A DNA stretch of 64,000 nucleotides from Candidatus Hydrogenedentota bacterium (GTDB lineage: Bacteria; Hydrogenedentota; Hydrogenedentia; Hydrogenedentales; SLHB01): contig JAIBAQ010000005.1 in NCBI GenBank assembly GCA_019695095.1, positions 25,144 through 89,143 on the forward strand. Reading direction: 5' to 3'. A program made the position numbers and the translations under genes. The notes beneath the pieces are model-generated. The model searched no databases and was not told the origin of the DNA. It worked only from the letters and a program-made list of their open reading frames with translations. Shown here piece after piece: positions 3,195 to 56,765 of the stretch (position 1 is the first letter of the stretch; the number at the start of each line of letters is the position of its first letter).

Positions 3195-3394
3195 GGTGTT
3201 TCCCCCTTCCCGTGCGGAATCCGCGCGCCTGCACCGGGTCCGAGATTGCGCGTTATCCTGGCGCGGCACGGATACGTCGCGATTATGGCGAATCCCTCGT
3301 GGCCGCGCCAATTTGTGCGCACGTGTTGATGGTCTTCGTCTTGAAAGCGGAGACAACGAATGTTCGTTGATTAAATGGCAGGGCCTTGTGTGTG

Positions 3395-3646
3395 ACCACA
3401 GAGTACCTGAACTGAGTCGGACAGCGCCTCGCTCGCCGAGCGCGGCGCTACTGAATCGCAGCCGAGGGCGGCTGCGCCACAAGGAGACCCGCCGTCAGCA
3501 AGCGCCGAGGGATGCCCGGCATGGGCCCAAACGCAACAGACCCTGCATAAGCCAACTTCCCGAAACGCGGTCCCGGTAGCGCCTCGCTCGCCGAGCGCGG
3601 CGCAGGGTATTCCGCAGCCTGCAAGTAGTGTAGATGCTGGCGGCCA
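3395..3646 (+). repeat. Repeat family R1, long copy A (~250 bp): two near-palindromic GCGCTCGCCGAGCGC-type modules around a conserved core
   Basis: Direct sequence match to 11719-11969 over ~250 bp and to 3950-4067 over ~115 bp. The core is ctactgaatcgcagccgagggcggctgcgccacaaggagacccgccgtcagcaagcgccgag. Confidence 0.85.
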
Positions 3647-3949
3647 GGGAGTCGGCCCTGACTCGGCATCGGACAGCACGTGCTCTCGTTCACTACTCAC
3701 ACCGTGTGTTTCTCCTGCGCGCCGCACGGCGTAAAACATAACAGCCTGGCGCGGCATCGCCGCAACCAAAAGAGACTCAACCACCGATATACACCGACGA
3801 TTTGACTCGATCCTCCAGAGCGCTGCAAGCGCGAAATACTCCAGCCTGGGGTGAGATGCGCGTCTTGGACGCGAATCGAAACCCCAGGTACCCGCCCTCA
3901 CCCAACGTGAGTCCTGTAAGGACGAAAGCAACTTATGCCGTCCACTTCT

Positions 3950-4067
3950 TAGGAGCCACGACAGAGACCTCGGTTATCCGCGCCGCGCTCGGCGAGCGCT
4001 GCGCTACTGAATCGCAGCCGAGGGCGGCTGCGCCACAAGGAGACCCGCCGTCAGCAAGCGCCGAGAG
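3950..4067 (+). repeat. Repeat family R1, short copy B (first module only)
   Basis: gccacgacagagacc...cgccgcgctcggcgagcgctgcgctactgaatcgcagccgagggcggctgcgccacaaggagacccgccgtcagcaagcgccgag is near-identical to the 5' halves of copies A and C. Confidence 0.85.
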
Positions 4068-4302
4068 ACGCCCACTCTTCCGACGCGTGTGCGCATGATG
4101 ACGCACTTTAGGAAAAGGCCCCCTCCGGGTATAATCGCGGAGGTGGGATGGCAGCCGCAGCCAAGTTTGGGGGAGTATGTCGAACCGTACCCACAATCGG
4201 TGGGTCTCGAAGTCTCAGCAGTTGCGTTGTCTCACTTCCTATGCTATCAGTAGCACGAAGACGACTTAACGACGGTCAAGCCGTCAAGCTGTAACGGGGT
4301 CC

Positions 4303-5550
4303 ATGAGTACAATCGAGCCAGAGCCAGAAAATCTCTCCGCCGAACCCGCGCCGGATGTATGTGCGCATTTTGGGGATTGCGGCGGGTGCCAATCGCAGAA
4401 CGTACCCTACGAAAAACAAGTCCAGGCGAAAAGCGAAGCGCTTAGCGCGTTGTTTCGCGCGCACTGGGAAACGACCATTCCCGTCGCGGAGTCGCCAACC
4501 ATCTGGCACTACCGGAACAAGGTCGATCCCAACTTCGGACGCATGCATTACCCGGAACCGCCGCCAAAGGGATTCGAACGCGAGTTGGTACTGGGGTTCA
4601 AGCGGCACGGGAAATGGTTCTGGACGCTCGACCTCGCGGAGTGCCGCATCGCCCCGGAAGGAATGGACACGCTCGTTGCAGCCGTGCGCGCGTGGGCAAA
4701 AGAACGGAAGCTGACCGCATTCAGTTCGAAGTCGAAGGACGGGTTTCTGCGGGCGTTGCTGGTGCGCGAAGGCAAACGCACCGGGGAACGCATGGTCGTG
4801 CTCGTCACGCACAAAGGCGACCTCGACAAGCAGTCGTTTGTGGATACGGTGCAGGCCGTGTTTCCGTGCCAGAGCATCCAGTGGGCCGTCTATCGCGGAG
4901 ACGCGGAAATCACCGCGGCAGACCAACTGGAGTTGCTGTATGGGAAGCCGTCCATCGAAGAGGTGTTGCACATCCCCGATTCGCGGTTCGAACGCAAACT
5001 GAAGTTCAAGTTGTCGCCGTTCAGCTTCTTCCAGACCAACAGCCTCGCCACCGAACTGCTCTACGGGCAGATTCGCGCGTGGGTGCGCGAGTCGCGCCCG
5101 AGCGTGCTCTACGATCTCTACGGCGGTTCCGGCGGCATCGCGTTTAGCTGCGCCGACTGCGTTGACCGCGTGGTATCGGTGGAAAGCGAAGAGTCTGCGT
5201 CCGTGGACGGCGTCTTCAACCGCGAAACCAACAACATCGACGACGTAATCTTCCTGACGCAGAAAGTCGAAGACTACCTTCGCGAGACCTTGTCCAAGCA
5301 AGGCAAACTGCAATCGAACAACCTTGTCGTGCTCGACCCGCCCCGCGCGGGACTCCACCCCAAGGCCCTGAAGCGGCTGATGATGCTCGAACCCAAAGAG
5401 ATCATCTACGTCTCCTGCAAACCCACCGTCTTCGCGGAAGAACTCCCCGCGTTCCTCACCAAATACGACATCCGCGACATGCGCGCCTTCGACCTCTTCC
5501 CCCACACCGAACACGTCGAACTGCTGACGAGGCTGATGCTGAAGGGATAG
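4303..5550 (+). CDS. Class I SAM-dependent RNA (uracil-5)-methyltransferase, RumA/RlmC-like with Fe-S motif and no obvious TRAM domain
   Basis: An N-terminal CAHFGDCGGCQ 4Fe-4S cysteine motif of the RumA/RlmD/RlmC family. The C-terminal methyltransferase core has DLYGGSGGIAF (SAM motif I-like) and VLDPPRAG (motif IV). Confidence 0.75.
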   Translation: MSTIEPEPENLSAEPAPDVCAHFGDCGGCQSQNVPYEKQVQAKSEALSALFRAHWETTIPVAESPTIWHYRNKVDPNFGRMHYPEPPPKGFERELVLGFKRHGKWFWTLDLAECRIAPEGMDTLVAAVRAWAKERKLTAFSSKSKDGFLRALLVREGKRTGERMVVLVTHKGDLDKQSFVDTVQAVFPCQSIQWAVYRGDAEITAADQLELLYGKPSIEEVLHIPDSRFERKLKFKLSPFSFFQTNSLATELLYGQIRAWVRESRPSVLYDLYGGSGGIAFSCADCVDRVVSVESEESASVDGVFNRETNNIDDVIFLTQKVEDYLRETLSKQGKLQSNNLVVLDPPRAGLHPKALKRLMMLEPKEIIYVSCKPTVFAEELPAFLTKYDIRDMRAFDLFPHTEHVELLTRLMLKG

Positions 5551-5816
5551 CTAGAGCGCGCGCAACGTGACTTTTCTATCGGCCCACACCCGCAAGAGCG
5601 CCGAATAGGAGCAGACAAGACACGACGGCCCCATGCCTTCCTGAGAAAGTCGCGCGTTCCTATTGCCTTCTCGCTGCACTGCCATGTAGAATGTACTATA
5701 TGAGGTTTAACCTTACCTAGCACGTTTGGTCAAACGCAGATTTTGCACATTCACCGTTCCGGCTCGGGGGAGACTGGAAAGGCCGCACAGTGCGGTCCGC
5801 GTAAAGTGGGGCAATC

Positions 5817-8045
5817 ATGTTGACAAGCAATCGTGTAAGGGGAATTGTTCTTCTCGCTCTCGTGATATGCGGTGCAATTGCCGTCTTCCTTACGGGGCAT
5901 AAGACCAGCGAACACATTTCACCAACGCCCAAAACTTCATCGAATAATGTCGCACGATCAGCCTCGCCGAGCTTAGGGGAAGACTCAGATGCTTCCGCGG
6001 TCATTTCAGGGGCAGTTCGAAATCGCCTGACGCAAGAGTCCTTACCTGGTGTGGAATTGCTGCTGCGCGGGAAGGCTGGCGAAGCCGAACGAAGCGAAAC
6101 AGGTGACGATGGGACATACGAGTTTCGTGACCTGCCGCCCGGCGAGTATGTGCTGGAATTCTACTCCCCATCAGGCTTGGTTGAACGAAACCCTGACCTG
6201 ACGAAACGTACTGTCGTGGTGACAGCAGGAGAGAAGGCCAAAGTGGACCTCCTGTTGGATGCCGGCGCAGTCTACGCTGGTCTTGTAATCGACGCCGCAA
6301 CTCAAGCAGTCGTGCAAGACGTGACCGTTATCGCCACGGCAGAGGAGCATTCTCGAGGATATGGCAAAACGAACAATGAGGGCCATTTCTGCCTCATGGC
6401 CCTGCAGGGGGAACTTGAGTACGATGTAGTCGTTAGTAGTGAAGATTATCTCCGGTACACCAAAAAGATCTCCCTTCCCGCTCAGGGTTTTCAGAGTGAC
6501 TCGATTTCGCTGGTACGCGGTTCGGTAATTCAAGGAAGACTTCTCCTTTCCAATAACCAACCCATTGATACAGCGTACGGGTTGGGGAGCATCCGTATCT
6601 CGCTGGAAAACGAGACGGGAACTGAAGTGGCAGGGCCCTCCTCCCAAGTACCTCCCAAAGACAGTCCGCCCGCCCCCGGCACCTTCCGGTTCTCGTTGCT
6701 TCCGACGGGCACGTATTACCTAAAAGCCCAGTGCTATCTCGTACCGGGCTCAGCCTTGAATGGTAAGACCTTCTACCGCGACGAAGCTGTGGTCATACGG
6801 CGTCCCGGCGAAACGGTAGAGGCAGACTTGGCACTGCCTTTTGAAGCGGGTGGGACGGGCAGTATCGAAGGAAGAGTCGTTACAGCAGAAGGGAAGCCGG
6901 TCGCGAATGCGTCGGTCGCGCTTAAGGAGTATCCTCTGGAGACTAGACAGCGGACGGATAGTGAAGGGCATTTTGCACTCCCCAATCTGCTTGAGGGGGC
7001 ACGGTTCGATATCATCGCCCGTTTCGCCTATCACGACTACAAAGAGGAAACCGCCGGGCCCACTCAAGCCGAGGTGACCGGAGTTCCTGTCGGCAAGCGA
7101 AACCTCCGTATTGTGTTGCCGCTTTCTGGAAGCCTGGCTGGGGTAGCCGTGGACAAGGATACCGGCGGCGTCCTTGCGCAGGCAACGGTAGAAGTCGCGC
7201 GAGAATGCATACGAGACGAAACTGGCCAGTTCATCATGCCGAACTCCATGAGAGAAATCGCCCAGACCGATCCGGACGGCTTCGCTGTCCAGTTCCTCAC
7301 ACCTGGAACAGTCACAATTTGCGTCAGTAGTCCGGGGTACTACGCGGTGCGGGTGCCGGATATCCGGATCGAAAGCGGCCAAACAGCCGATGTGGGGCGG
7401 GTTCTGCTTTCGAAGGGAATTCCTGTTCAATTCGAAGTGTATTACGCCAAAGGGTTCTCTGGAAAGCTCTACGGTATTAACGTTTTCACTGCTACGGGCG
7501 GGTGGGCCGAACCCAGTATTGAAGAAAGAGAAGGTCAGGAGAATCCGCGCGTTTACGACGTGTCGATTTCGCCGGGATCCTATCTGGTTACCCCTCTCGT
7601 CGAGTACGAGGGCAGTCCCTGGGAAAGGAGCTACCACAATATTGAAGTGGCGGCCGCTTCCCAGACGGGCAGTACTCAGGTTTTCAAGTTTACCATCGGT
7701 AGCGATACGGGCGAAGTATATGGGGTGATTGAGAACGCGCTCGACTATCGAGTGGAACAGATCTATCTGGCGCGGCAGCAGCAGTGGCCCTACGCGCCCA
7801 ACGAACCCAATGTCAATGCTCGTTTCTATGAAGACCCTACGGCAACATTTCTGATGAGAGAACAACGGCCTTCCGAAACCGGTACATTTCGCTTTGAACA
7901 CTTGCCGGCGGATACCTATGGAATCCATGTTGTATATCAAGACCCCCGGACAGGGGAAAAGCGCGTTGAATCCACGCCAGTCACAGTAGGAGACGGAGAG
8001 ACTTCGGAGGTCTCGCTGAGTCTGCGCGGCGGGGATACAAGCTAA
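5817..8045 (+). CDS. Membrane-anchored protein with multiple carboxypeptidase-regulatory-like (Cna-B / Ig-like) repeats
   Basis: N-terminal TM helix (IVLLALVICGAIAVFLTG), then repeated G.V....G.P..G..V.L...GE..RSETGDDGTYEFRDLPPGEYVL-type modules (DGTYEF, SEGHFALPNL, ETGTFRFEHLPADTY). Lower GC than its surroundings. Confidence 0.5.
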   Translation: MLTSNRVRGIVLLALVICGAIAVFLTGHKTSEHISPTPKTSSNNVARSASPSLGEDSDASAVISGAVRNRLTQESLPGVELLLRGKAGEAERSETGDDGTYEFRDLPPGEYVLEFYSPSGLVERNPDLTKRTVVVTAGEKAKVDLLLDAGAVYAGLVIDAATQAVVQDVTVIATAEEHSRGYGKTNNEGHFCLMALQGELEYDVVVSSEDYLRYTKKISLPAQGFQSDSISLVRGSVIQGRLLLSNNQPIDTAYGLGSIRISLENETGTEVAGPSSQVPPKDSPPAPGTFRFSLLPTGTYYLKAQCYLVPGSALNGKTFYRDEAVVIRRPGETVEADLALPFEAGGTGSIEGRVVTAEGKPVANASVALKEYPLETRQRTDSEGHFALPNLLEGARFDIIARFAYHDYKEETAGPTQAEVTGVPVGKRNLRIVLPLSGSLAGVAVDKDTGGVLAQATVEVARECIRDETGQFIMPNSMREIAQTDPDGFAVQFLTPGTVTICVSSPGYYAVRVPDIRIESGQTADVGRVLLSKGIPVQFEVYYAKGFSGKLYGINVFTATGGWAEPSIEEREGQENPRVYDVSISPGSYLVTPLVEYEGSPWERSYHNIEVAAASQTGSTQVFKFTIGSDTGEVYGVIENALDYRVEQIYLARQQQWPYAPNEPNVNARFYEDPTATFLMREQRPSETGTFRFEHLPADTYGIHVVYQDPRTGEKRVESTPVTVGDGETSEVSLSLRGGDTS

Positions 8046-8046
8046 C

Positions 8047-9426
8047 TTGTCTGATCTACGAAACAGGGAGACGGATATTGGACTGGTCAACGTGAAGAAG
8101 CGGCTACGACTCCGAAGCTGCCTGTGCGTCGGATTCTCGTGCGGGGTCGTTAGCCTGGCCGGTGTGTTCCTGTGCTTTCTTCTGGTTGTAAGAATTGCAG
8201 GTTTCGACGTTGACATGAAAACTCTTCCCTCGTTTATTCACGGTCTCTTCGTCAATTTCCGGAGTTGGACCGCCGAATTCGTCGAACCCACCGATTACCC
8301 TCAATTCTTCACTGTGGTGGCCTGGAATGACTCGATTGTTGGAGTCAACACGAAAAGTACAGAGACGCTGATACGCACAGGCGGGATGCGGGTGGACGGA
8401 GGCACAGTGCGGCGCTGCTTCGAAGACATCAAATCTGGTGTGTCCGAGGATCTAACTCCGTTGTTTTGCCCCATCAGCTTCGATTCGCCAACAGTGCCGA
8501 TCGAAGTGCCGTTCGTGGCCTTTGGCAGAGAGCGTCAGCCCGGTTATGGCGCGGGCCTACCGGGAAACCCCGTGGAGAATGAGACATCGGAAGACGTAGC
8601 GCCATTGAGACTTCTTGCGGGAGTCGACGGACCTACTCCCTACTATACCGTGACACCGCGTGTTTTGTTGGACACTCGGCCTTCCGTGGCTTGGATTGAG
8701 AAACACAACGAGAAAGTGAACTTACTGTGTCTTCTGTCGGATGAGCGAAGTTGCCGTGTCATTCCAACGGATTATAGACCGGATCAACTCGTGGCTGGGC
8801 CAACATGGTGCGACAAGCGTGAACTGTGTCTTCTTGTAAAGGAAGCGGAGAGCGATGCACTAGACCTGGTTCTGGTCTCAATGGCGGACACAAATACAGA
8901 TGTCCAGAGAAGGCGAATCATCGTCCACCTCCCCGCGAAGCCACGGAATATACTCGTGTTCCAAGTTGCACGCGTCGGATTGAGCCACGTCATCCGTATA
9001 GACTCAAGTCTGGATAATGATCTCTATGAATTTGCCGACTGCCTGTTGTACCTGAGACACACAGGTGAAGTGGAGCGTATCAATTGCCAGGATCGGATCC
9101 GCTATCTCTCCCCTTCCGGTACCCATGTATCCTGTGAAGAAGATTCGGAATATGCTCTCACGCATTGGATCTGCAAACTTGACATCGAAACCTTGAGTCT
9201 CACGCGCGTATTGGTAGTAATTGGAGATCCATCGCTTTCTGGATGGGACCAGACGGAGCGGTTTTACGTATCGGCCTTCCATGTATTTCCCCGCTGGACA
9301 AGGCTGTGCGTGCATATGTACGACTTGGAATCAAAGAGGAAGCTACGCCGACTTTCGATTGATAGATACCCGACGGACGACCCGGCGGTCATGGTGGGGT
9401 CTAACAGTGAATTGATAAGAGACTGA
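8047..9426 (+). CDS. Hypothetical membrane-anchored protein (no recognisable domain)
   Basis: Starts 2 nt after the upstream stop, so it is translationally coupled. N-terminal hydrophobic segment VGFSCGVVSLAGVFLCFLLVV. Lower-GC codon usage shared with its neighbours. Confidence 0.4.
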   Translation: MSDLRNRETDIGLVNVKKRLRLRSCLCVGFSCGVVSLAGVFLCFLLVVRIAGFDVDMKTLPSFIHGLFVNFRSWTAEFVEPTDYPQFFTVVAWNDSIVGVNTKSTETLIRTGGMRVDGGTVRRCFEDIKSGVSEDLTPLFCPISFDSPTVPIEVPFVAFGRERQPGYGAGLPGNPVENETSEDVAPLRLLAGVDGPTPYYTVTPRVLLDTRPSVAWIEKHNEKVNLLCLLSDERSCRVIPTDYRPDQLVAGPTWCDKRELCLLVKEAESDALDLVLVSMADTNTDVQRRRIIVHLPAKPRNILVFQVARVGLSHVIRIDSSLDNDLYEFADCLLYLRHTGEVERINCQDRIRYLSPSGTHVSCEEDSEYALTHWICKLDIETLSLTRVLVVIGDPSLSGWDQTERFYVSAFHVFPRWTRLCVHMYDLESKRKLRRLSIDRYPTDDPAVMVGSNSELIRD

Positions 9427-9500
9427 GGCGAAGTGTTGGATTAAGCGGACAAGATGCAAAGAGTGAAGACATCGCAAAGCACAGATGCGGTGATTCACGA

Positions 9501-10433
9501 TTGAATAGTCAACTGACAATTAGCGCTACCAAAACGAATCGGGCCTTGCGAATGGCAAAGAGACTAAGCGTGGCTACAGTCATAATCTGCATGGCTGTCG
9601 CGGTCGTATATTCCGCCTCCAGACTCATCTCTATCGTAAGACACGATATGTTCCCGAATGTCAGTTCACCGGCATCGGCGGCGAACGCGGCGATCCATGT
9701 GCCCGAATTCAACAAGAAAGTCGCCGTCGGGCCGTGTATCGCGTATGGCGACGCCGTGTTGCCGTATTTGGAAGCAGAGTCGTCAAACTACACGCAGCTC
9801 TATCACGGTTCACATAGAAACGTCGCGCTCATCCTGAGCGGAATCGATTCCCCCAAATCACTTGCAGTTCTACGCGAGTTGTATTCGCGAGACCAATTAT
9901 GGGCGAAAGAAGCGGGAATGCTGGGACTTGTTCTATGTGGACAATTTAATGAACCCGTACACGAGGGGGCGTTTATCGTACAAGACATAGACGAAGTCAA
10001 AGCCACCGCTCTAGCATTGCTCGACCGTAAAGAAGCTGTCCCGTTCCTTATAAGCTCGCTCCAGTCCAGCAAGCGAGACTTCTGGGCCCACACCAAGATT
10101 ATGGAGGCACTTGGCGCGTTGGGCGACCAGACGTCGATTGAACCGTTACGCAACTACTTGCATGACAAGACTGTTTTCGCGTTGGACGGGGCGTTTCGGG
10201 CACTGATTATGCTTGGCGACCGAGATGCCATACCGATTACCATCAAACGTATTGAACCGGATATGGATGACTCTCAAGCCCTTGTAATTCCCTCGTTGGA
10301 ACTGGTCACGCGGCAGAACTTTGGCCGGGACAGGGAAGACTGGCAACGCTGGTGGCAGGGTGCTCAAACCTCCTTTCGAATCCCTCCAGAAGCCATAGAA
10401 ACGTTTCGGAAAGATGCTCTTCGTGTACCGTAG
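9501..10433 (+). CDS. HEAT/PBS-lyase-like repeat protein with N-terminal TM anchor
   Basis: TM segment VATVIICMAVAVVYSA followed by HEAT-like repeats (LISSLQSSKRDFWAHTKIMEALGALGDQTSIEPLRNYLHDKTVFALDGAFRALIMLGDRDAIP). Confidence 0.5.
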   Translation: MNSQLTISATKTNRALRMAKRLSVATVIICMAVAVVYSASRLISIVRHDMFPNVSSPASAANAAIHVPEFNKKVAVGPCIAYGDAVLPYLEAESSNYTQLYHGSHRNVALILSGIDSPKSLAVLRELYSRDQLWAKEAGMLGLVLCGQFNEPVHEGAFIVQDIDEVKATALALLDRKEAVPFLISSLQSSKRDFWAHTKIMEALGALGDQTSIEPLRNYLHDKTVFALDGAFRALIMLGDRDAIPITIKRIEPDMDDSQALVIPSLELVTRQNFGRDREDWQRWWQGAQTSFRIPPEAIETFRKDALRVP

Positions 10434-10485
10434 GGTCTCGGCAATTCCAGGTTACATGCCTTACGAGATGTCAAGTTGTTGTTTG

Positions 10486-10519
10486 GCGCCTTGGCGTCTT
10501 TGCGTTTCCTCTTGATTTG
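10486..10519 (+). repeat. Short repeat R3 copy 1 (ggcgccttggcgtctttgcgtttcctcttgatttg)
   Basis: Near-identical 34-bp match to 10781-10814 (one mismatch, g vs a). Confidence 0.8.
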
Positions 10520-10769
10520 CGTTTCTTCTTGAATTGATCTCAACTCAAGATAAGTCGCCAGGATACACCGGCTGTCCGCGTATGACCACTCATTCATTGT
10601 CTTCGTGCTGTTGCGGTGATAATCGAAGAGTCGTTACCACCAAGGCACGATGACACAAAGAAGATAACCCAAAAAGACTCAAGGGTACACAAGTCCACTC
10701 ACGCCTTGCAGACCAAGTATCAATCCTCAGTATCCATGTTGGATATGGATAGCGGCGACGTGCCTTACT

Positions 10770-10845
10770 TTGCGTCTTTGCGCCTTGGCGTCTTTGCGTT
10801 TCCTCTTAATTTGATTTCAACGCAAAGGCGCGAAGACGCCAGGAT
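10770..10845 (+). repeat. Short repeat R3 copy 2 embedded in an imperfect hairpin (ccttggcgtctttgcgtt ... aacgcaaaggcgcgaagacgccagg)
   Basis: Contains the 34-bp R3 unit plus an internal tandem tttgcgtctttgcg duplication and a downstream inverted-repeat arm. Confidence 0.7.
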
Positions 10846-11381
10846 GCTGCGTCAGTCCGCTTGCTACCACTCGCTCATCGCCTCCTTGTCCGGCCTGTCC
10901 CTTTCATTCGCCACGTCAGTGCAACGACTCTGCGCATATATGTGAGGTGCGTCACAAACAGAGTGGGGTTCTTACAATGTCGTTGCAGATACTTTCGCCA
11001 CTCCGCGTATGCTCGCGGCCAGGCTTCGGAGAGTCGGAAGTTCACCGGATGACCGGAATGACTCCCATAAAACGGCCAGGGACTCCCGGTTCCGGGAAAG
11101 GGGGGTGTCCCGTACGAATATGGACAGCCGTTCGCGGGTTTTCAAGAAACGCCATCCGCTCTAACTCATTTTTTCACAGGCGCTTACCCGACATCGTGCG
11201 CCGGTGCGCGCTCGGGGGGCCCCCCTTGCCCCGTCAAAACACATCGCGGGGCACCCCCCTTCCGAGAGTCCGGAGGCGTCGATTCTTCCGCGGACTACCG
11301 TCTCGCGGAAGACTCCTGTTGTCAATCTTGGCCGCAAGAGTACATGCTTAACGTGTGCACACCAATCGGAGGCCACCCAGC

Positions 11382-11642
11382 ATGAAGGTCACCCTTTCAG
11401 ACCTGCGTCGTAATCCCGGGAAGATCGTCGAGGCGATCAAGCGCGGCGAGACGGTCACGCTGTCCAAGCGCGGGAAGGAGATTGCATACATCATTCCAAA
11501 GCACTCGGCAAAGGCACCGATGTCGGCGTCGATCTCGGTCTCGTCATGTTCCGCTATTGGAATGTGGAAAGACCGTGAAGACATGAAAGATCCCTCGACC
11601 AGGACTACAGGGGATACAGGTCCCTATTCCTCAAGATCGTAG
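11382..11642 (+). CDS. Type II antitoxin, Phd/YefM (prevent-host-death) family; orphan, with no adjacent toxin gene
   Basis: MKVTLSDLRRNPGKIVEAIKRGETVTLSKRGKEIAYIIP matches the Phd/YefM N-terminal fold signature. GGAGG-like RBS (caatcggaggccacccagc ATG). The C-terminal GMWKDRED motif is the kind seen in antitoxins of VapC/PIN partners. Confidence 0.65.
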   Translation: MKVTLSDLRRNPGKIVEAIKRGETVTLSKRGKEIAYIIPKHSAKAPMSASISVSSCSAIGMWKDREDMKDPSTRTTGDTGPYSSRS

Positions 11643-11718
11643 AAAAGTTACGTATTGGGGGAGTAAGTTGTTGAACGGCTGCGTGTTGGCCATGGTTTAC
11701 GGATTTGCTTGGATGTGC

Positions 11719-11969
11719 TGAGCCACGACAGAGACCACGATTAACCTGCGCCGCGCTCGGCGAGCGCTGCGCTACTGAATCGCAGCCGAGGGCGGCTGCG
11801 CCACAAGGAGACCCGCCGTCAGCAAGCGCCGAGGGACTCCCGGCGTCGGCCCAAACGCAAAAAACTCTGCATGAGCCGACTTCCCGAAACGCGGTCCCAG
11901 TAGCGCCTCGCTCGCCGAGCGCGGCGCAAGGTATGCCGCAGACTCCAAGTAGTGTAGCTGCTGGCGGCC
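11719..11969 (+). repeat. Repeat family R1, long copy C (~250 bp)
   Basis: Collinear with copy A (3395-3646) over its full length, in the same orientation. It lies immediately downstream of the orphan antitoxin. Confidence 0.85.
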
Positions 11970-12104
11970 GCGAGAACAGTGGCGCTTATTTGGTTCGTTT
12001 ATCGGAGTTCATCGGTGTTCATCCGTGGTTGAATCTCTTCTGGTTGCGGCTGTGCCGCGCCAGGCTAAGGGAATTTCTTCCCAACGTAGATCGGAGCGAA
12101 TCCA

Positions 12105-13073
12105 ATGTCGGCTTCATTCGTGGTCTTCATGGCGCTTGCGGCGGGTCCCGTTCTTGGTGTCGATTCATCCCGCTTTACGCTCGATGAGCGGCCCGCGTTT
12201 CTGCTGGGTATTAGCTATTACGGGGCCTTGGCCATCGAGGACAAGGCGATTGTGGCGGGCGATCTCGACGAGATGAAGGCGCTCGGCTTTAATTGGGTGC
12301 GGGTATGGGTGACGTGGAATGCATTCGAAAACAACGTGAGCGCCGTCGCGCCGGATGGCTCGGTACGGCGGCCGTATATGGACCGCTTGCTGCGACTCTG
12401 CAAGCTTGCGGGTACGCGCGGCATGGTGGTCGACGTGACGGTGACGCGGGGCAAGGCTCCGGATTTTCCGAGCACCATGGCGGAACATGAAGCCGTGATG
12501 CAGACCTTGGCCCGCGAACTAAAACCGTATCGCAATGTCTATTTCGACGTGGGGAACGAGCGCAACGTGGGCGATGAGCGCCATGTGCCGATGAGCGAAG
12601 TGGGCCGTCTCGTCGAGTCGATCAAGCGCATCGATCCGGACCGGCTGTGTACCGCGTCGCAGGGCGGCGACATCAGCGACGAGGAATTCGGCAACTACCT
12701 TGAAACGGGCAAGGTGGATTTCGTCGCGCCGCATCGTGGGCGCTACGCGGGCAGCGCCGCGGAAACCGGCGAGACGACGCGGCACTATCTGGACTTGATG
12801 AAGGGCGGACGCATCGTGCCGGTGTTGTATCAGGAGCCGTTCCGGCGCGGGTATGCGGATTGGGAACCGAAGGCGGACGACTTCAGAACGGACCTCGAAC
12901 AGTCGAAGGCATCGGGAGCCGCAGGCTGGTGCTTTCACAACGGGTCGGTACGCAGCGGGAAAGGCGACGAACGCCCGCGACGGTCTTTCGACTTGCGACC
13001 GGAGGAAGGCAGATTGTTCGACCAATTCGACGCGGAAGAACGCGCGTTCCTTGACTCGCTCAAGAAACGCTGA
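12105..13073 (+). CDS. Secreted GH5-like (clan GH-A) glycoside hydrolase
   Basis: Signal peptide MSASFVVFMALAAGPVLG. GFNWVRVWVTW and YFDVGNERN (catalytic-acid NE motif of GH5-type TIM barrels). Confidence 0.6.
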   Translation: MSASFVVFMALAAGPVLGVDSSRFTLDERPAFLLGISYYGALAIEDKAIVAGDLDEMKALGFNWVRVWVTWNAFENNVSAVAPDGSVRRPYMDRLLRLCKLAGTRGMVVDVTVTRGKAPDFPSTMAEHEAVMQTLARELKPYRNVYFDVGNERNVGDERHVPMSEVGRLVESIKRIDPDRLCTASQGGDISDEEFGNYLETGKVDFVAPHRGRYAGSAAETGETTRHYLDLMKGGRIVPVLYQEPFRRGYADWEPKADDFRTDLEQSKASGAAGWCFHNGSVRSGKGDERPRRSFDLRPEEGRLFDQFDAEERAFLDSLKKR

Positions 13074-13077
13074 GTCC

Positions 13078-13095
13078 CCGCGGCGTCGGCCGCGG
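13078..13095. terminator. Candidate bidirectional hairpin between convergent genes (ccgcggc gtcg gccgcgg)
   Basis: Perfect 7-bp GC stem with a 4-nt loop, lying between the stop codons at 13071-13073 (+ gene) and 13101-13103 (- gene). Confidence 0.4.
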
Positions 13096-13100
13096 AGTCT

Positions 13101-15476
13101 TCACTGCGCGAAGTCCGAGGAATCCACCAGTTTCCACGTGGCGCCGCTGTCCGGCGACATCATCAGGGCGCGCCTCGAACCCATGTGGTCGTTGCGGTAG
13201 AACCACAACGTGGACCAGTAATCGTAGGACAGGAAGAGGCGTCCTTTCCGGTCGATGGTCAGACGGTGGTAGTACACGCTGTACTCGGAGAACGGCGGCA
13301 CGACAAGCAGCCGCGGCGCGGACCACGCTTCTCCCTTTCGCTTGCTCATGTACGCGAGGCATGCATAGATGCCCGAGGGGAATCGCTGCGTATCGTCCTG
13401 CCAAAGACGAAACACCACGTGGAGCGTGTCGTCCTTGTCGCAGACCATGCCCACGTAGGTTTGGCGCAGGCCCGCTCCCAAGTCTTCCGCGGGCGTCCAA
13501 CCGTCTGCGGTGCTGTTGGGTTTCAGCGAGCGCGAGTACTTGAACGTGGCCCCGTGCGTGCCAATGAGCACGTGGAGATATCCTTCGCTGTCCATCGTGA
13601 TGCACGGCGTGTTGTGAACGTCGTTCGCGGGAGGCCCGTAGCCGATCAGCGCGGGCGCGCCCAGCGTTCCCGTCTCACGGTCGTAGGTGGCCGCATAGGT
13701 TGGGACGCCGGGCACCTGTTCCGCCGGGTCCGTGGCTTCGGCCCACACGACGTGAACCTTGGAACCGCGCGACACGATGGTTGAAGGCATGCCGGAGTGT
13801 CCCGAGTAGCCGATGCATTTCTTCGTGATCAAGACAGGCTCTTGCAGGGAGACCGTTCCGTCTGCTTCCTTCTTGGGAAGATAGAGAAGCATATCGTTCA
13901 ATCGACGCCAAATGAGATTAGGGTCTTTCTCCGTCAGATTGAATTGCACAAAAGGCGGTGGCCCATCGGGAAGGTTGTGTCCGGAGAACTGCTCGATGTC
14001 GCACGTCCCGGGCGCGGGGATCGCGGTGGCGGCGAAATGGTTCCCGCCATCGCCCGAATAAAGGAGCACCTTCCCATTTGCGTCGCCGATTGAGTAGATG
14101 CCGTTATCGCGATCGAACGCGACCTTGGTGGTCGCCGAACGTATTGGCGCGCTCCCCGGCGCGGTGTAAGAGGCAGTCGGCCATTTGCCATCGTTCAAGA
14201 CTGACAGGCCATCGCCGTTATTCACAACCGGCCGATTGTTCATATCGAAGTAGACCTGATTGGTCAACGGGCACGACGGGGCGTAGCCGAGTTGTTCGTT
14301 TTCGTGTTGGAAAGGCTTCAAATCGAGCGGCATCGAAAGCGGCGCCAAAGCGGGCGCGATGCCTCGGCGCAGTCGGAAGGTCGAGAAGGTTGCGAGTTCT
14401 GGCGCGTCATTCGGAATTGCGCGCACTTTGCACTCCCACTGATCGCCTTCAGCCGGCAATTGATATCTAAGCGTGACCTCCGTGGATTGATTGGGTCCGA
14501 GCGTTACCTCGGACTTGTCCAGTTCCGCGGACCACTTCTTGTCCTCAGGGAACTCGATATCCAAAGTAACGGCGGTGCTTCTGGAATCGTTGTTATGAAC
14601 CTGGAACGTGCTCGTGCCGTCTTCCTGAGTGCCCGCATAGATTGTGTTCGAGTACGGAGTCAGCATCCAACGCACGGCGGCGAACCCAAACCATGAGTCC
14701 TTCTGCGGCGACCACAGCGTCTCGTCGCGAAACGAATCCTTCTGCGACCAGCGTGTCACGCCATCAATTTGGACGCTCCCGGAATACTTGGGCAGATGCA
14801 ACCGCCACGGCTCCATCGCAGATACCGTATCGGCGCGAAACTTCGCGGAACCGGTACCGTCGGAGCCGATGGGCAACTCTCCCACTTTCTCATCGAGCGC
14901 GTTGAACAGTTCCAGGGGGCCGGACTCCGATGACGCTTCGGCGACGTCGATGGTGAACTCGCCCGCGCGCGGCACGAAACACACGTCGCCAGCGACATCC
15001 GGATTTCGAAGCACGATTGGCTCTTCGTGATCGGCGTCGCGGTGGCCGCGCGCAGTCTCAATCACGTAATGCGTGCAATTGGTGCGGAACCCCCACTCCA
15101 CGTTCTCGCCGTACCGGTCATTCGAGACCGTGACGAGTACGCCGTAGATGCCCACACCGCGAACGGTAGTCGCGACACGAGCGTGTTGGACGGGACCCGT
15201 CCCGCTGCCCTTGGCTTGGCCGTCGTCAGGAATAGTCTTTTCGTCAAGCACTTGCCTGTCGGGACCGAAGAGAATAAGTGTCATGAAAGTTGGTTTGTCG
15301 GAACGATTCAGGTCGGCCTTCTCGACTTCGACCCAGAGTTCACCCGTATCAGGCAACAGAAAGATTCCGCCAATTCCACCCCAGCGGTGGTCCGTGGTCC
15401 AGGCCGAGTTCTCCGCCGCAATTGCGGCAGCCGCGAAGAACAGGAAGACAACCCCGAGATGTGTGATGCGTGTCAT
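13101..15476 (-). CDS. Secreted BNR/Asp-box repeat protein (sialidase/glycosidase-like beta-propeller)
   Basis: Start refined to MTRITHLGVVFLFFAAAAIAAE (signal peptide) with a GGGGAGAG RBS. Asp-box motifs SPDSGATW and SGDGGNHF. Confidence 0.55.
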   Translation of the reverse strand: MTRITHLGVVFLFFAAAAIAAENSAWTTDHRWGGIGGIFLLPDTGELWVEVEKADLNRSDKPTFMTLILFGPDRQVLDEKTIPDDGQAKGSGTGPVQHARVATTVRGVGIYGVLVTVSNDRYGENVEWGFRTNCTHYVIETARGHRDADHEEPIVLRNPDVAGDVCFVPRAGEFTIDVAEASSESGPLELFNALDEKVGELPIGSDGTGSAKFRADTVSAMEPWRLHLPKYSGSVQIDGVTRWSQKDSFRDETLWSPQKDSWFGFAAVRWMLTPYSNTIYAGTQEDGTSTFQVHNNDSRSTAVTLDIEFPEDKKWSAELDKSEVTLGPNQSTEVTLRYQLPAEGDQWECKVRAIPNDAPELATFSTFRLRRGIAPALAPLSMPLDLKPFQHENEQLGYAPSCPLTNQVYFDMNNRPVVNNGDGLSVLNDGKWPTASYTAPGSAPIRSATTKVAFDRDNGIYSIGDANGKVLLYSGDGGNHFAATAIPAPGTCDIEQFSGHNLPDGPPPFVQFNLTEKDPNLIWRRLNDMLLYLPKKEADGTVSLQEPVLITKKCIGYSGHSGMPSTIVSRGSKVHVVWAEATDPAEQVPGVPTYAATYDRETGTLGAPALIGYGPPANDVHNTPCITMDSEGYLHVLIGTHGATFKYSRSLKPNSTADGWTPAEDLGAGLRQTYVGMVCDKDDTLHVVFRLWQDDTQRFPSGIYACLAYMSKRKGEAWSAPRLLVVPPFSEYSVYYHRLTIDRKGRLFLSYDYWSTLWFYRNDHMGSRRALMMSPDSGATWKLVDSSDFAQ

Positions 15477-28038: not shown

Positions 28039-28157
28039 CGGTGACGCGCATCACATGGCCATCGCGTCATCGCTGGCCACATAAACTCGCCGGGCACACG
28101 CAGGCCAGTGTGTCACAATGGTCAGGGCTCGTCAACCGCGTGTGGAACGACCACCTA

Positions 28158-28343
28158 CCCCGGATTTTTCACGAACATACTTGAACCTCTCTCGTAACCA
28201 ATGTGTTTGCGAGACTTGCGGCGAAATACAAATCGGTTCTCCAAAAACGGAGTGTGTTCGCGAGAAATCCTCAAGGCATAACCTCAACGTCTTGCACGTG
28301 AGCATTTTGCGTCGGCGCTCAATCGCGCCAGTGCAAATTGCGG
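28158..28343 (+). repeat. Repeat family R2 copy 1 (~186 bp) with internal 17-bp inverted repeats (ggatttttcacgaacat / gtgttcgcgagaaatcc)
   Basis: About 88% identical to 56184-56369. It sits immediately 3' of ppk, between it and the acylase start. Confidence 0.85.
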
Positions 28344-28344
28344 A

Positions 28345-30360
28345 CTATTGCTGCGCGGAGAGTTTTTTCAAGTACCGATAGGTCTCGATCTGCGACCCGT
28401 GTGTGCTGGACCCATCGCGCACGTATTGGTTCGACTGAAACTCGTCCAATACACGCGCCTTATACTTGTCCGCGACTTGGAGTCCCATGACATCCACAAC
28501 CTGTTGCTGCAATTCCGGATCGTATACCGGGAATGCCGCTTCGACTCGCCAGTCAAGGTTGCGTTCCATCAAGTCAGCAGAACTGAGGTATACAAGGCGG
28601 TCCTTGCCTTTGCCGAAGATGTAGCACCGCTGGTGTTCGAGGAATCGGTCCACAATGGAAATGGCCCGGATATTCTTATGGGGCAGGACGGCATAGGTCG
28701 TGCGAACAATGAGGTCCATCTTGACGCCGGCATCGGCCGCTTTGCCCATTTTCTTCAGGATCTTGCTGTCGGTGAGGTGATTGACCTTGAGAAAGACATA
28801 ACCGTCTTCGCCTTTGGCTTTCTCGCGGGCCAGTAATTTCAGGAACATCTTGCGCGAATTGAACGGCGAGATCATGAGATGCTTGAGCTTGGGCATGGGC
28901 ATGGTGCGCATCTTGGAAGCGCCATCGAAGACTTCGAAGACTTCGTCAACTTCGGCGGCAAGCCGCTTGTCAACCGTGAGCAGCAGGCTATCGACGTAGA
29001 GCTTCCCTGTCACCTCGTTGAAGTTGCCGGTGGAAAGCCCGGCGTAAAGGACGTTGTTGCGCTTGATGAGCAACAACTTGCTATGGACCTTCATGGGGGG
29101 CATGCCGAACGTGATTCGCGCGCCCACTTCGGTGAGTTGTTCGGCGATTCGAAGGTTGTTCTTTTCGTCGAACCGCGCTTGAAGCTCGATCGATACGAAT
29201 ACTTTCTTACCGTTTCGGGCCGCGTTTATGAGCGCATTGACGATGTGGGAGTTTCGAGCGGCGCGGTAAATGCACATTTTGATTTCGTCGACTTTGGGGT
29301 CGATGGCCGCCTCGCGCAATAGACGAATTAGATGGTCGAACGATTGATACGGGTACGTAACCAGCAGGTCACGGCTCTTGATGGTTTCAAGCATTGGCTG
29401 ACGTACGCGGTCCAGCACGGGATGCGGAACGGGCGTGAGCTTCTTAAACGACATCTCGGGACGGTGATTGGGGAACTGCATGAGGTCTCGCATATTGTGG
29501 TAACGTCCGCCGCCAATTAGGGCGTCGTCCACTGTAATGCGAAGTTCCTGGCGCAGCAGTTTCAGCAATCCCGGTGGGATTTCCTCGTCATAGACGAGCC
29601 GTGTCGGGCGGCCGCCTTTTCGTTGTTGAAGAACGCGCTCCATCTTGCGCGCATAGCCTTCGCTGAAGTCGTTGTCAATGTCTAGCTGCGCGTCTCGCGA
29701 GATTTTGAATTCAAACGCTTCGATTCGTTCGTATTCAAAGATATAGAAGACTTCATTCAATTGATGACGAATCACGTCATCGATATACATGATGTTGCCG
29801 TTGGGGAGTTCGACGAAACGCGGCAAGTCGGACGGAATCTCAAGGATGGCGTAGATAGGCTTCTTTGCCCACATTTTGACGGCAAAGTACAGCGCCCCGT
29901 CATTCAACTGGGGGAATGGCTGACCGTCGCGAATAATGATTGGCACAAGGCTGGGCAGTACGTGTTCCCGGAAAAATTCCTGAAGCCACTTGGCGATACC
30001 GTCTGTACTCTTTGCTATGTCTTTCTCGGTGAGGATTCGCACGCCTTCGGCCGCCAGGGCTTTCGTGATTTCGGCGTAGGCAGCGCGGGATCGTTCGTCA
30101 AGCTCGCGCGACTTGTCCGCGATGCTTTCAAGAAGGGCCATCATGGTCTTCTCGCCGAGTTCGATTCGGCGCTGAATACTTGCGACTCGCACCTTGAAGA
30201 ACTCGTCCATGTTGGAGGAGAAGATACCCAGGAACTTAAGCCGCTCCATGAGCGGGTTCCGAGCGTCTTCGGCCTCCTGCAATACGCGTTCGTTGAAGGA
30301 GAGCGTGGAGATCTCGCGAATCTGAAAGAGGTTCTTAATGAATTGCTCTTGCGCTTTCAT
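28345..30360 (-). CDS. ppk: Polyphosphate kinase 1
   Basis: Collinear with E. coli PPK1 (LSFNERVLQEA, MDEFFKVRV, GGRYHNMRDL, VSIELQARFDE, HSKLLLIKR, LSSADLMERN). Confidence 0.95.
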   Translation of the reverse strand: MKAQEQFIKNLFQIREISTLSFNERVLQEAEDARNPLMERLKFLGIFSSNMDEFFKVRVASIQRRIELGEKTMMALLESIADKSRELDERSRAAYAEITKALAAEGVRILTEKDIAKSTDGIAKWLQEFFREHVLPSLVPIIIRDGQPFPQLNDGALYFAVKMWAKKPIYAILEIPSDLPRFVELPNGNIMYIDDVIRHQLNEVFYIFEYERIEAFEFKISRDAQLDIDNDFSEGYARKMERVLQQRKGGRPTRLVYDEEIPPGLLKLLRQELRITVDDALIGGGRYHNMRDLMQFPNHRPEMSFKKLTPVPHPVLDRVRQPMLETIKSRDLLVTYPYQSFDHLIRLLREAAIDPKVDEIKMCIYRAARNSHIVNALINAARNGKKVFVSIELQARFDEKNNLRIAEQLTEVGARITFGMPPMKVHSKLLLIKRNNVLYAGLSTGNFNEVTGKLYVDSLLLTVDKRLAAEVDEVFEVFDGASKMRTMPMPKLKHLMISPFNSRKMFLKLLAREKAKGEDGYVFLKVNHLTDSKILKKMGKAADAGVKMDLIVRTTYAVLPHKNIRAISIVDRFLEHQRCYIFGKGKDRLVYLSSADLMERNLDWRVEAAFPVYDPELQQQVVDVMGLQVADKYKARVLDEFQSNQYVRDGSSTHGSQIETYRYLKKLSAQQ

Positions 30361-56164: not shown

Positions 56165-56183
56165 GGCACCATCTCGCCGTTAG

Positions 56184-56369
56184 CCCGGATTTCTCACGAA
56201 CACACTTGACCTTTTCTCGTAGCCAGTACGTTTGCGGGACTTACGACGAAAAACAAAGCGGTTCTCCGAAAGAAGAGTGTGTTCGCGAGAAATCCTCATG
56301 GCATAACCTCAACGTCTTGCACGTGAGCAATTTGCGTCGGCGCTCAATCGCGCCGCTGCGAAATGCGGG
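56184..56369 (+). repeat. Repeat family R2 copy 2 (~186 bp)
   Basis: About 88% identical to 28158-28343, including the 17-bp inverted repeats (ggatttctcacgaacac / gtgttcgcgagaaatcc). It fills the gap between convergent gene ends. Confidence 0.85.
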
Positions 56370-56765
56370 TTAGTGGGAACACGTGCAGGTATGGTCTCCC
56401 CCATGAATGTGGCCCGAGAAATAGGCGGCCGCGGCATCTTCGGGAGATGCTTCGGGATTCACCATGAGTGGAGTAATCCCATGCTCCTTCAATTCGCTTG
56501 CCGCGCGTGAACCCATACCGCCGGCTATAACTGCTTCGCAATCGTGCAGCAAGGCCATGAGATCCGCGTGGCCATGATGCTCACCGTGAGCGTGGCCCTC
56601 GCCGTGTCCGCAGCCCACGTGGGATGAACATGCATGGGTGTTGGCGCGTGCTTCCCTTCGGACGATTTCGTTTGCCTCCAAATCGTAAATCAAAAAGCAT
56701 AGGCTCCGTCCGAAGTGCGTCGAAATGCACTCGCCGTCCGACGAGGCAATAGCAATACGTTTCAT
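56370..56765 (-). CDS. NifX/NafY/NifB-C-terminal-like cofactor-binding domain protein (dinitrogenase FeMo-cofactor biosynthesis domain family) with His-rich insert
   Basis: MKRIAIASSDGECISTHFGRSLCFLIYDL and CEAVIAGGMGSRAASELKEHGITP match the PF02579-type fold. The insert is CSSHVGCGHGEGHAHGEHHGHAD. Start position approximate (the Met at about 56763-56765). Confidence 0.7.
   Translation of the reverse strand: MKRIAIASSDGECISTHFGRSLCFLIYDLEANEIVRREARANTHACSSHVGCGHGEGHAHGEHHGHADLMALLHDCEAVIAGGMGSRAASELKEHGITPLMVNPEASPEDAAAAYFSGHIHGGDHTCTCSH

Follow-up and report, generated by a model that had tools for sequence, protein, structure and literature searches.

Intergenic repeats of REP-like architecture flank rlmD at a mosaic locus of a Candidatus Hydrogenedentota bacterium

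Islands bounded by att sites are integrase-mediated and are often found at tRNA genes. In a stretch of 64,000 nucleotides of a Candidatus Hydrogenedentota bacterium (contig JAIBAQ010000005.1; hereafter the window), two long direct repeats, R1-A and R1-C, share one orientation and bracket low-GC genes together with an orphan antitoxin gene, which raises the question whether the DNA between them entered the genome as a unit. The initial annotation read positions 3395-11969 in this way, as a single integrated island, perhaps decayed or mobilised in trans, in which R1-A and R1-C are attL/attR-type repeats.

The repeats were recovered much as first described. In a repeat search of the window, R1-A and R1-C were collinear, both on the + strand, and 92% identical over 222 ungapped nt (3424-3645 and 11748-11969). 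With MAFFT and blastn the similarity could be followed to about 3395 and 11719 on the left, across a 6-nt indel, and to about 3650 and 11972 on the right. R1-A (3395-3650), supported by the alignments and by its fold, and R1-C (11719-11972) are full-length copies. The short copy inside the interval, earlier placed at 3950-4067, was located at 3953-4073 on the + strand (R1-B). It is a truncated 5′ half, which matches R1-C over 114 nt and R1-A over 86 nt, both at 96.5% identity (blastn). R1-B and R1-C, which lie 8 kb apart, are 96-98% identical, and the 5′ half of R1 is 95-98% conserved between copies. In shuffled sequence a 25-nt palindrome pattern observed 10 times and a 32-nt core pattern observed three times gave no match in 100 shuffles, which excludes a chance origin. 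In addition, independent Logan contigs of sample SRR1027651 showed 100% identity to 4036-6904 and 99.97% to 7385-10800, and their ends lie at the repeats. Since these contigs reproduce the sequence, the repeats cannot be ascribed to misassembly of the window.

All three copies are intergenic. R1-A and R1-B share a gap of 1.1 kb (3195-4302) between a glycosidase-like gene of 955 or 1051 aa on the - strand and rlmD, and R1-C lies in the gap 11643-12104. The start codon of the 1051-aa ORF is almost certainly the ATG at 3194, outside R1. No Rfam family and no tRNA was found in the R1 copies. Whole copies of R1 were not found in any collection searched, and protein-space proxies for its copy number gave no match; as the collections contain neither the source genome nor this window, the lack of R1 elsewhere is uninformative.

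To place the repeats relative to the surrounding genes, we compared the locus with two Hydrogenedentales metagenome-assembled genomes, L002 and L003, of about 83% nucleotide identity to the window. The two are 92% identical to each other and therefore represent one relative lineage, which leaves the arrangement upstream of rlmD unpolarised. The gene rlmD (4303-5550, + strand) encodes the 23S rRNA U1939 C5-methyltransferase (TIGR00479 equivalog match, 206.6 bits against a cutoff of 183.55) and is present in both relatives in syntenic position with 89-90% amino acid identity. In L002 it is followed after 40 nt by the GH5-like glycosidase gene, which in the window is the core flank at 12105-13073 (+ strand), and then by BNR; in L003 an intact phd-vapC pair stands between rlmD and GH5. 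The rlmD-GH5 gap is thus found in three states: empty (L002), with phd-vapC (L003), and with phd alone plus cargo (window). Because rlmD forms one collinear series with GH5 and BNR, both located beyond the repeats, it belongs to the core genome and the bracketed interval is not one unit.

The presence/absence comparison that the initial annotation had proposed also placed the edges elsewhere than at R1. Positions 5560-12095 of the window are missing or replaced in both relatives; the left edge lies at about 5560 or 5583 and the right edge at about 11325 or 12095. The empty site of L002 and the site of L003 that holds only the toxin-antitoxin pair both put the left edge at about 5560-5583, where no R1 sequence was found. 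No R1 was present at the empty site, nor any R1 module in the 26 kb of L002 and L003 sequence. In favour of an island, homology with the region upstream of rlmD in the relatives starts only at about 4115, some 40 nt to the right of R1-B. Both R1-bearing gaps are indeed synteny breaks relative to these genomes, and since they coincide in this way, some causal tie between R1 and rearrangement at the locus may exist.

The part of the interval that was acquired is a block of about 5.74 kb (5583-11325, + strand), which is missing from both relatives and is bracketed by spacer homology at about 5583 and 11325. It contains three low-GC genes of envelope type. The gene at 5817-8045 encodes a membrane-anchored protein with CarboxypepD_reg/transthyretin-like repeats, 8047(8215)-9426 is an ORFan, and 9501-10433 encodes HEAT repeats; the products of these last two each have a hydrophobic segment at the N terminus. 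These are followed by a noncoding tail of 0.9 kb (10434-11325) with 8-mer and 37-mer repeats. The lower GC noted earlier for this cargo was confirmed both by GC (0.50-0.57 against 0.60-0.65) and by GC3 (0.57-0.58 against 0.65-0.78). The interval thus does contain a compositionally atypical, recently acquired block, placed at a toxin-antitoxin hotspot where even the two relatives differ; on the other hand, rlmD is core and R1 does not form the block edges. Domain searches of the interval ORFs, with permissive thresholds included, found no integrase or transposase, in agreement with the initial annotation. Neither a mobility pseudogene in the interval, nor a recognisable mobility or defence gene in the cargo, nor a tRNA or tmRNA in the window was detected.

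The orphan antitoxin noted earlier was confirmed as a member of the phd family, and its gene occupies 11382-11642 on the + strand (TIGR01552, 36 bits against a cutoff of 20.8). It is orthologous to the antitoxin of L003 over residues 1-67, and from about 11595 its 3′ end is replaced. The replacement block of about 500 nt (11595-12099, + strand) consists of R1-C and a 58-nt element and occupies the site where L003 carries the antitoxin 3′ end and vapC; its edges are the points where the alignment homology to L003 stops and then resumes. The adjacent toxin of the pair, intact in L003, has been lost from the window, and tblastn (E≤10) revealed no VapC remnant there. Compared with other phd/vapC hotspots, the polymorphism of the gap in three states is familiar. 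In contrast, the toxin here was cleanly replaced by repeat DNA instead of being point-mutated, and the cargo is without a recognisable mobility or defence gene.

Taken together, the island reading is largely refuted by synteny and we consider it highly improbable. The resemblance to att-bounded islands consists in direct repeats that bracket atypical genes and a toxin-antitoxin remnant. However, a core gene lies within the brackets, the true indel edges are away from the repeats, and integrase, tRNA and mobility pseudogene are all lacking. R1 itself is also unlike an att site: it is about 250 nt long, approximately ten times the typical att core, modular and internally palindromic, and its third copy is truncated.

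What, then, is R1? Each copy is built from two classes of palindromic unit. REPa lies at 3424-3451 (- strand) and 3576-3603 (+) in R1-A, at 3980-4007 (-) in R1-B, and at 11748-11775 (-) and 11900-11927 (+) in R1-C. All five units have a GTAG head followed by CGCC(K)CGCTCG-SC-GAGCG(M)GGCG, a palindrome of about 24 nt with a 10-bp stem. REPb was found once per copy, at 3457-3480, 4013-4036 and 11781-11804, each time on the - strand. All three have the form GTGG-CGCAGCCG-CCCT-CGGCTGCG, in which a GTGG head precedes a 20-nt palindrome with a 9-bp stem. R1-B comprises the left flank, REPa, REPb and 37 nt, and R1-C ends in a GTAG-headed tail (11949-11969). REPa occurs as an inverted pair in R1-A and R1-C and as a singlet in R1-B, because this copy is truncated. 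In a full R1 the two inverted units lie about 127 nt apart and would be able to close a hairpin of about 180 nt around REPb; beyond them are short flanks that are conserved. In R1-C the inverted arms (11742-11777 and 11898-11933) measure 36 nt each, with 89% complementarity and 120 nt between them. Within the 64-kb window all REPa and REPb units lie inside the three R1 copies, that is, in two of the 24 intergenic gaps.

The predicted folds of R1 are long hairpins closed by the REPa arms, with z-scores of -5.9 and -6.6 as RNA, strong on both strands, and -2.0 as DNA. Such folding, together with the conservation of the 5′ half and the intergenic position of every copy, would be compatible with three paralogous copies of a structured small RNA or a cis-regulatory RNA. 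We regard this as improbable. The stability arises mostly from perfect palindromes, equal as DNA or on either strand, and no compensatory changes were seen between R1-A and R1-C; where the left palindromes of the two differ, it is by a flip of the asymmetric positions, which is a typical form of change in DNA palindromes. None of the three copies was found to be bracketed by a convincing promoter or terminator, the orientation is inconsistent (R1 is antisense to the 955-aa gene and sense to rlmD and GH5), and the truncation of R1-B and the lack of an Rfam match also speak against an RNA gene.

REP elements, REPINs and BIMEs are known from Proteobacteria, where they are mobilised by RAYT/TnpA_REP Y1 transposases. 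Two of the features that define REPs, which lie almost only between genes, are that they are dispersed in tens to hundreds of copies per genome and that they also flank the gene of their cognate RAYT (a Y1 HUH transposase), itself present in a single copy. We propose that R1 is a non-coding, REPIN/BIME-like composite of REP-like palindromic units, which on the architecture seen in 64 kb is the probable explanation. By definition a REP or REPIN carries the conserved tetranucleotide GT(A/G)G at its 5′ end, behind which lies a palindromic region (PMC3686654), and the R1 architecture agrees with the published definition (PMC3686654; PMC3337134): in the R1 units the GT(A/G)G head directly precedes a GC-rich imperfect palindrome. 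As in REPINs, two inverted units of the same class, REPa, close a hairpin, and as in BIMEs, R1 is a mosaic of different unit classes with conserved linkers. The strictly intergenic position of the copies and the occurrence of a truncated one, R1-B, are further likenesses. The differences are longer palindromes (9-10-bp stems in units of 24-28 nt), a spacing of the inverted units of about 127 nt compared to 34-110 nt in P. fluorescens, a duplicated unit larger than the textbook doublet, and the host, a Hydrogenedentales-like bacterium. No Y1 transposase was found among the window genes scanned against Pfam, and the four proteins outside that scan, of at least 790 aa, are far too large for RAYTs. 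Literature searches aimed at other subjects surfaced no description of REPs or RAYTs for the Hydrogenedentales lineage. The initial annotation had set a dispersed REP-like element against its island; the architecture of R1 supports such an element, while a genome-wide copy number to match is not yet supported.

We also considered a MITE. R1 resembles one in being small, non-coding, intergenic, present in several copies and able to form a hairpin from inverted-repeat ends. This candidate was rejected, as no target-site duplication is present at the arm flanks (ACGAT/TAACCT ... AAGGTA/TGCCG in R1-C). Moreover, unlike in a MITE, the homology between copies continues past the arms on both sides, the arms are self-palindromes with GTAG heads, which are REP-like and not IS-end-like, and no related IS or transposase is present in the window. 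The similarity overshoots the REPa pair by about 25 nt on the left and about 42 nt on the right; pairwise, R1-A and R1-C share 42 nt past the right arm and R1-B and R1-C about 28 nt past the left arm.

A 58-nt element, which contains a GCGGC-NNN-GCCGC mini-hairpin, accompanies R1 at both loci. Its copies at 3743-3800 (+ strand) and 12009-12066 (- strand; it ends 39 nt before the start codon of GH5) are 86% identical and in opposite orientations. A second hairpin-forming intergenic repeat of the window, D3, is unrelated; its copies are 28 kb apart.

This pairing bears on a further explanation, a low-copy local segmental duplication, in which recombination or template switching, at work while both sides of rlmD were being remodelled, carried copies of R1 and the 58-nt element from one junk gap to a site about 8 kb distant. 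The REP-like palindromes would then be incidental or relics of an old REP cluster. Every R1 module of the 64 kb is at this locus, R1 and the 58-nt element occur together at both sites, both sites are synteny or indel breakpoints, and R1-B and R1-C share their high identity, left flank included, at close distance. The lack of whole R1 copies elsewhere would also fit, but it carries little information for the reason given above, the source genome being outside the collections. At the second site the 58-nt element runs opposite to R1, and therefore one simple duplication cannot explain both repeats, and the invariant GTAG and GTGG heads and the presence of REPb in other genomes argue for a family with its own dynamics. 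We therefore judge a local duplication possible but rather unlikely.

The occurrence of REPb in other genomes is as follows. The 24-mer of R1-A, followed by a GCCACAAGG tail, recurs identically in four metagenome contigs (L025-L028) that share no flanking similarity. In all four it is intergenic and lies among housekeeping genes, for example aconitase/Obg, helicase/GT4 and DivIC. Such a module, present in unrelated genomes amid housekeeping genes, again does not fit an island end. In L028 REPb forms an inverted doublet, an arrangement that, like its sharing between genomes, resembles REP/REPIN elements, and in L026 it stands amid clusters of other GTAG/GTGG palindromes. The REP-flanked ORF of L026 is not a RAYT and encodes a GT4 glycosyltransferase.

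For the REPIN/BIME-like composite that we prefer, the history of the locus may be pictured as follows. Three R1 copies, one of them truncated, would have lodged in two long, fast-evolving gaps that flank rlmD. R1 would have spread in the manner of REPs, either mobilised in trans by a Y1 (RAYT-type) transposase or through recombination and gene conversion between copies. The DNA between R1-A and R1-C would be a mosaic of three histories, with rlmD as its vertically inherited core. A low-GC block of about 5.74 kb (5583-11325), made up of the three envelope-type genes and decayed noncoding DNA, presumably entered the gap that separated rlmD from an ancestral phd-vapC pair, and later vapC and the antitoxin 3′ end would have been swapped for the R1-C/58-nt-element block of about 500 nt, which orphaned the antitoxin. 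The bracketing of the interval by R1-A and R1-C would be incidental. As 222-nt direct repeats of 92% identity, they could nevertheless serve as a substrate for RecA-mediated deletion.

For genome scans, the locus indicates that atypical genes within long direct repeats are insufficient to call an island. A single synteny comparison shifted both edges and placed a housekeeping rRNA methyltransferase inside the proposed island. Three processes appear to act on one intergenic hotspot, namely gain or loss of a toxin-antitoxin module, the arrival of a block of envelope genes that includes an ORFan, and the settling of palindromic repeats. Tentatively, and with more doubt than belief, R1, REPa and REPb might be the tip of an undescribed REPIN-type population of mobile repeats in Hydrogenedentota that remodels toxin-antitoxin hotspots. 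If so, the hairpin of REPb (GTGG-CGCAGCCGCCCTCGGCTGCG) together with its GCCACAAGG tail would be conserved base for base across several uncultured lineages, which would be unusual because REP classes are species-specific as a rule. Such hotspots would then be actively reshaped as R1 inserts or recombines, here with vapC deleted and the antitoxin orphaned. A true REPIN/RAYT system would be a modest advance that leaves understanding unchanged; it would extend the system to a poorly known uncultured phylum and give a REP unit common to several lineages.

A repeat search of the window recovered a direct repeat between 3424-3645 and 11748-11969 (222 nt ungapped, 92% identical) and a 94-nt family of three copies, in which 3980-4073 is the additional member. 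By alignment and blastn, the repeat, R1, is present as two full copies, R1-A (~3395-3650) and R1-C (~11719-11972), and one truncated copy, R1-B (3953-4073), all on the + strand. R1-B and R1-C are 96.5% identical across 114 nt and have their left flank in common. Judged from shuffled sequences, zero matches to the palindrome and core patterns are expected by chance. Moreover, an independently assembled Logan contig from run SRR1027651 matches window 4036-6904 at 100%, and a second contig from this run matches 7385-10800 at 99.97%. The ends of these contigs fall within R1-B and within a local repeat of 37 nt, which is the behaviour expected when repeats are truly present in the reads. The repeat search, alignment, blastn, shuffles and Logan contigs therefore bear out the ~250-bp direct repeats and the partial third copy of the initial annotation.

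The gene content that had been described for 3395-11969 was also found. The RNA methyltransferase gene rlmD lies at 4303-5550 (+), and its product scores above the NCBIfam trusted cutoff for the RlmD equivalog. It is followed by the lower-GC three-gene module at 5817-10433 (GC 0.50-0.57; GC3 0.57-0.58, compared to 0.65-0.78 in neighbouring genes) and by the orphan Phd antitoxin gene (TIGR01552), whose true frame is 11382-11642 (+). As had been stated, domain searches of the ORFs in the interval detected no integrase or transposase.

With the methyltransferase as query, a related-locus search yielded two Candidatus Hydrogenedentales MAG contigs, L002 and L003, which are collinear and 92% identical to each other. 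Their methyltransferases share 89-90% amino acid and ~83% nucleotide identity with that of the window. On L002, 40 nt separate rlmD from a GH5 gene, after which comes a BNR gene; these two genes correspond to window 12096-14960, so that there is no counterpart to window ~5560-12095. The position of rlmD next to GH5/BNR in the relatives ties this housekeeping gene, which the proposed island would enclose, by vertical descent to genes that lie beyond the island. From this comparison, a single integrated unit spanning 3395-11969 is incompatible with the rlmD linkage, and the proposed island with R1-A and R1-C as its ends did not hold. The R1 repeats are thus confirmed and an R1-bounded island is not supported in the form proposed, but a smaller insertion of atypical DNA, from ~5583 to ~11325, is real. 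These limits were set by weak, positionally consistent homology to the L003 spacer. No R1-related sequence was found in 5551-5816. A 14-nt inverted pair close to the edges of the insertion (5565-5578/11640-11653) was considered as possible transposon ends and treated as chance, since it belongs to a set of 30 comparable pairs, no homology boundary coincides with its right arm, and its left arm lies partly in sequence with weak homology to a hairpin that follows rlmD in L003.

The gap between rlmD and GH5 is empty in L002 (11249-11290), carries an intact phd antitoxin (82 aa) and VapC/PIN toxin (123 aa) gene pair in L003 (11249-12110), and holds the acquired block, the orphan phd and repeats in the window (5551-12104). 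This clean presence/absence difference of the toxin-antitoxin pair between L002 and L003, despite their 92% identity, marks the gap as a toxin-antitoxin-associated hotspot. The window antitoxin is orthologous to that of L003 up to residue 67 (window 11594). Beyond this residue and up to ~12099, R1-C and a 58-nt element take the place of the antitoxin C-terminus and vapC of L003, and tblastn detected no VapC remnant in the window. Upstream of rlmD, homology to the relatives is first seen at ~4115, some 40 nt past the right end of R1-B, and the relatives' 10 kb upstream of rlmD has no match to the window; with L002/L003 as the only outgroup lineage, either lineage may be the one that rearranged here. 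The upstream spacers of L002 (9483-9787) and L003 (9630-9787) cannot be aligned to each other despite the 92% identity of the contigs, indicating that the region where the window carries R1-A and R1-B is also hypervariable in the relatives. The L002 spacer contains a short GAAGGAAGT tandem run at 9590-9650.

All three products of the acquired block (5583-11325) start with a hydrophobic segment; one contains CarboxypepD_reg/transthyretin-like repeats and one HEAT repeats. The middle gene (8047-9426, +; probable start ATG 8215) is a true ORFan. A word-indexed search of 5.8 billion clusters returned no homologue, and an exhaustive HMMER (phmmer) scan of 1.84 billion representatives gave only its own Logan copy and one marginal match (E = 8.5e-4). 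The block matched no known defence system or phage module. Its ~0.9-kb tail (10434-11325) is apparently noncoding, with no detectable pseudogene. Units of 8 nt (CTTTGCGY/CTTGGCGY) occur there in runs, a 37-nt sequence is repeated at 10483 and 10777, an imperfect duplication of ~290 nt pairs 10483-10607 with 10777-10888, and a hairpin lies at 10772-10847. The tail looks iteron-like, with no recognisable coding content. Nothing links the arrival of the block to R1.

R1 itself is built from palindromic units. The window contains five copies of a self-complementary 25-nt palindrome, all of them within R1 (3424, 3579, 3980, 11748 and 11903) and each preceded by GTAG on the appropriate strand. We named this unit REPa, GTAG-CGCC(K)CGCTCG-SC-GAGCG(M)GGCG (sequence GTAGCGCCKCGCTCGSCGAGCGMGGCGC). 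A full R1 copy has two inverted REPa units with heads inward and ~127 nt between them; the 36-nt arms are 89% complementary, and the right arm is followed by a GTAG-headed tail. The arms enclose another unit, REPb, GTGG-CGCAGCCG-CCCT-CGGCTGCG (sequence GTGGCGCAGCCGCCCTCGGCTGCG), which does not vary among the three R1 copies. Folds were predicted for the ~260-nt R1 region as RNA on both strands, and were closed by the REPa arms on either strand (z = -5.9 and -6.6); the predicted fold of the 198-nt core as DNA had z = -2.0. The left palindrome of R1-A has the same asymmetric bases as its right one, a flip relative to R1-C that explains three A/C mismatches and that probably reflects typical evolution of a DNA palindrome.

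At the sequence level, REP elements and REPINs are defined by a palindrome headed by the tetranucleotide GT(A/G)G, by an intergenic location and by inverted doublets that fold into hairpins (PMC3686654; PMC3337134). High genomic copy number and a cognate RAYT gene are two further features that define REPs. R1 resembles them in its GT(A/G)G-headed palindromes, intergenic site and inverted hairpin-forming doublets, and on these sequence features would for now be best filed as REP/REPIN/BIME-like. In the 64-kb window, REPa and REPb units occur at the R1 locus only, which makes a low-copy local duplication a serious, if rather unlikely, rival. A small RNA is also possible, but this reading has no promoter, terminator or covariation support and the copies are not consistently oriented. 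Rfam gave no family in R1 at gathering or permissive thresholds, and no tRNA was found. Between the 58-nt element and R1-B, a sub-threshold match to the Rfam Acido-Lenti-1 sRNA at 3819-3850 (-; 23 bits vs gathering 37, E = 0.011) was dismissed as probably chance. A diversity-generating retroelement was rejected, as the aligned A-vs-C substitutions are not adenine-specific and a reverse transcriptase is absent. A target-site duplication or MITE was ruled out from the reading of the flanks.

When searching other genomes, an exact scan with a 23-nt R1 core gave 0 matches among one genome per GTDB species, a set from which the source species is missing. The same core matched four contigs in JGI metagenomes, which have just 26-34 nt in common with R1, namely REPb plus its GCCACAAGG tail. 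REPb sits between housekeeping genes there, for instance aconitase/Obg, helicase and GT4 glycosyltransferase, and DivIC. One contig (L028) carries REPb as an inverted doublet, with a third variant close by; on another (L026), two inverted copies of another GTAG palindrome class enclose it, and more GTAG/GTGG palindrome clusters come after the next gene. The organism of L026 appears rich in REP/BIME-like clusters. On this contig, several distinct GTAG/GTGG-headed classes flank the GT4 glycosyltransferase gene on both sides (5277-5373 and 6685-6847), and a GTAGGGTGGGTCTTGACCCACC palindrome occurs three times. From its context on the four contigs, REPb behaves in several uncultured organisms like a unit of the REP type and is usually found within mosaic clusters resembling R1.

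A complete R1 was absent from the GTDB-species genomes, JGI metagenomes, protein-space and plasmid searches, which says little because the window itself is not in these collections. In protein space, a six-frame concatenated query for spurious ORFs over R1 gave 0 matches among 8000 candidates, which were probably saturated by low-complexity words, and a 160-aa ORF through R1-C also gave 0; both negatives are uninformative. REPa, REPb and the 58-nt element had one match in viral contigs, a chance one within a phage coding region; the R1 region and the tail of the acquired block had none in plasmids (blastn).

The 58-nt element lies beside R1 at both loci in opposite orientation, at 3743-3800 (+) with R1-A/B and at 12009-12066 (-) with R1-C. 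The copies are 86% identical and share a mini-hairpin, GCGGC-NNN-GCCGC, with a conserved stem and a different loop (ATC vs ACA). Being inverted relative to each other, the copies could allow the 8.2 kb between them to invert. Each copy is upstream of a flanking glycosidase-type gene in the same relative orientation, and a shared promoter/operator of two paralogous glycosidase genes was considered as what the element might be. However, the two proteins show only a distant relationship (21% identity, E = 6e-6), and the start-codon distances differ (39 nt vs 549 nt). A second repeat of the window, D3, unrelated to R1, occurs at 28156-28350 and 56181-56375 (both +; ~195 nt, 86-88% identical). Its copies are intergenic, 28 kb apart and in ordinary gene neighbourhoods, one flanked by the penicillin amidase and ppk1 genes and the other by a PSCyt1/WD40 gene and a gene of the FeMo-cofactor family. 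D3 forms a long hairpin through an internal inverted repeat of 22 bp, GGATTTYTCACGAACAYACTT ... GAGTGTGTTCGCGAGAAATCC, and Rfam gave no match. D3 could be a MITE/REPIN-like element or an sRNA, and its presence shows that this genome does host dispersed, structured intergenic repeats.

The interval would best be read as a five-part mosaic: a REP-like cluster (R1-A, the 58-nt element and truncated R1-B) in the 1.1-kb gap upstream of a core gene; that core gene, rlmD; the acquired 5.74-kb block; an ancestral antitoxin; and a second REP-like cluster (R1-C and the inverted 58-nt element) in the toxin's place. On either side of rlmD, R1 units occupy the two largest variable gaps; the bracketing by R1-A and R1-C is most simply incidental. 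As direct repeats, the two copies could nevertheless serve as substrate for homologous deletion of the 8.3 kb between them.
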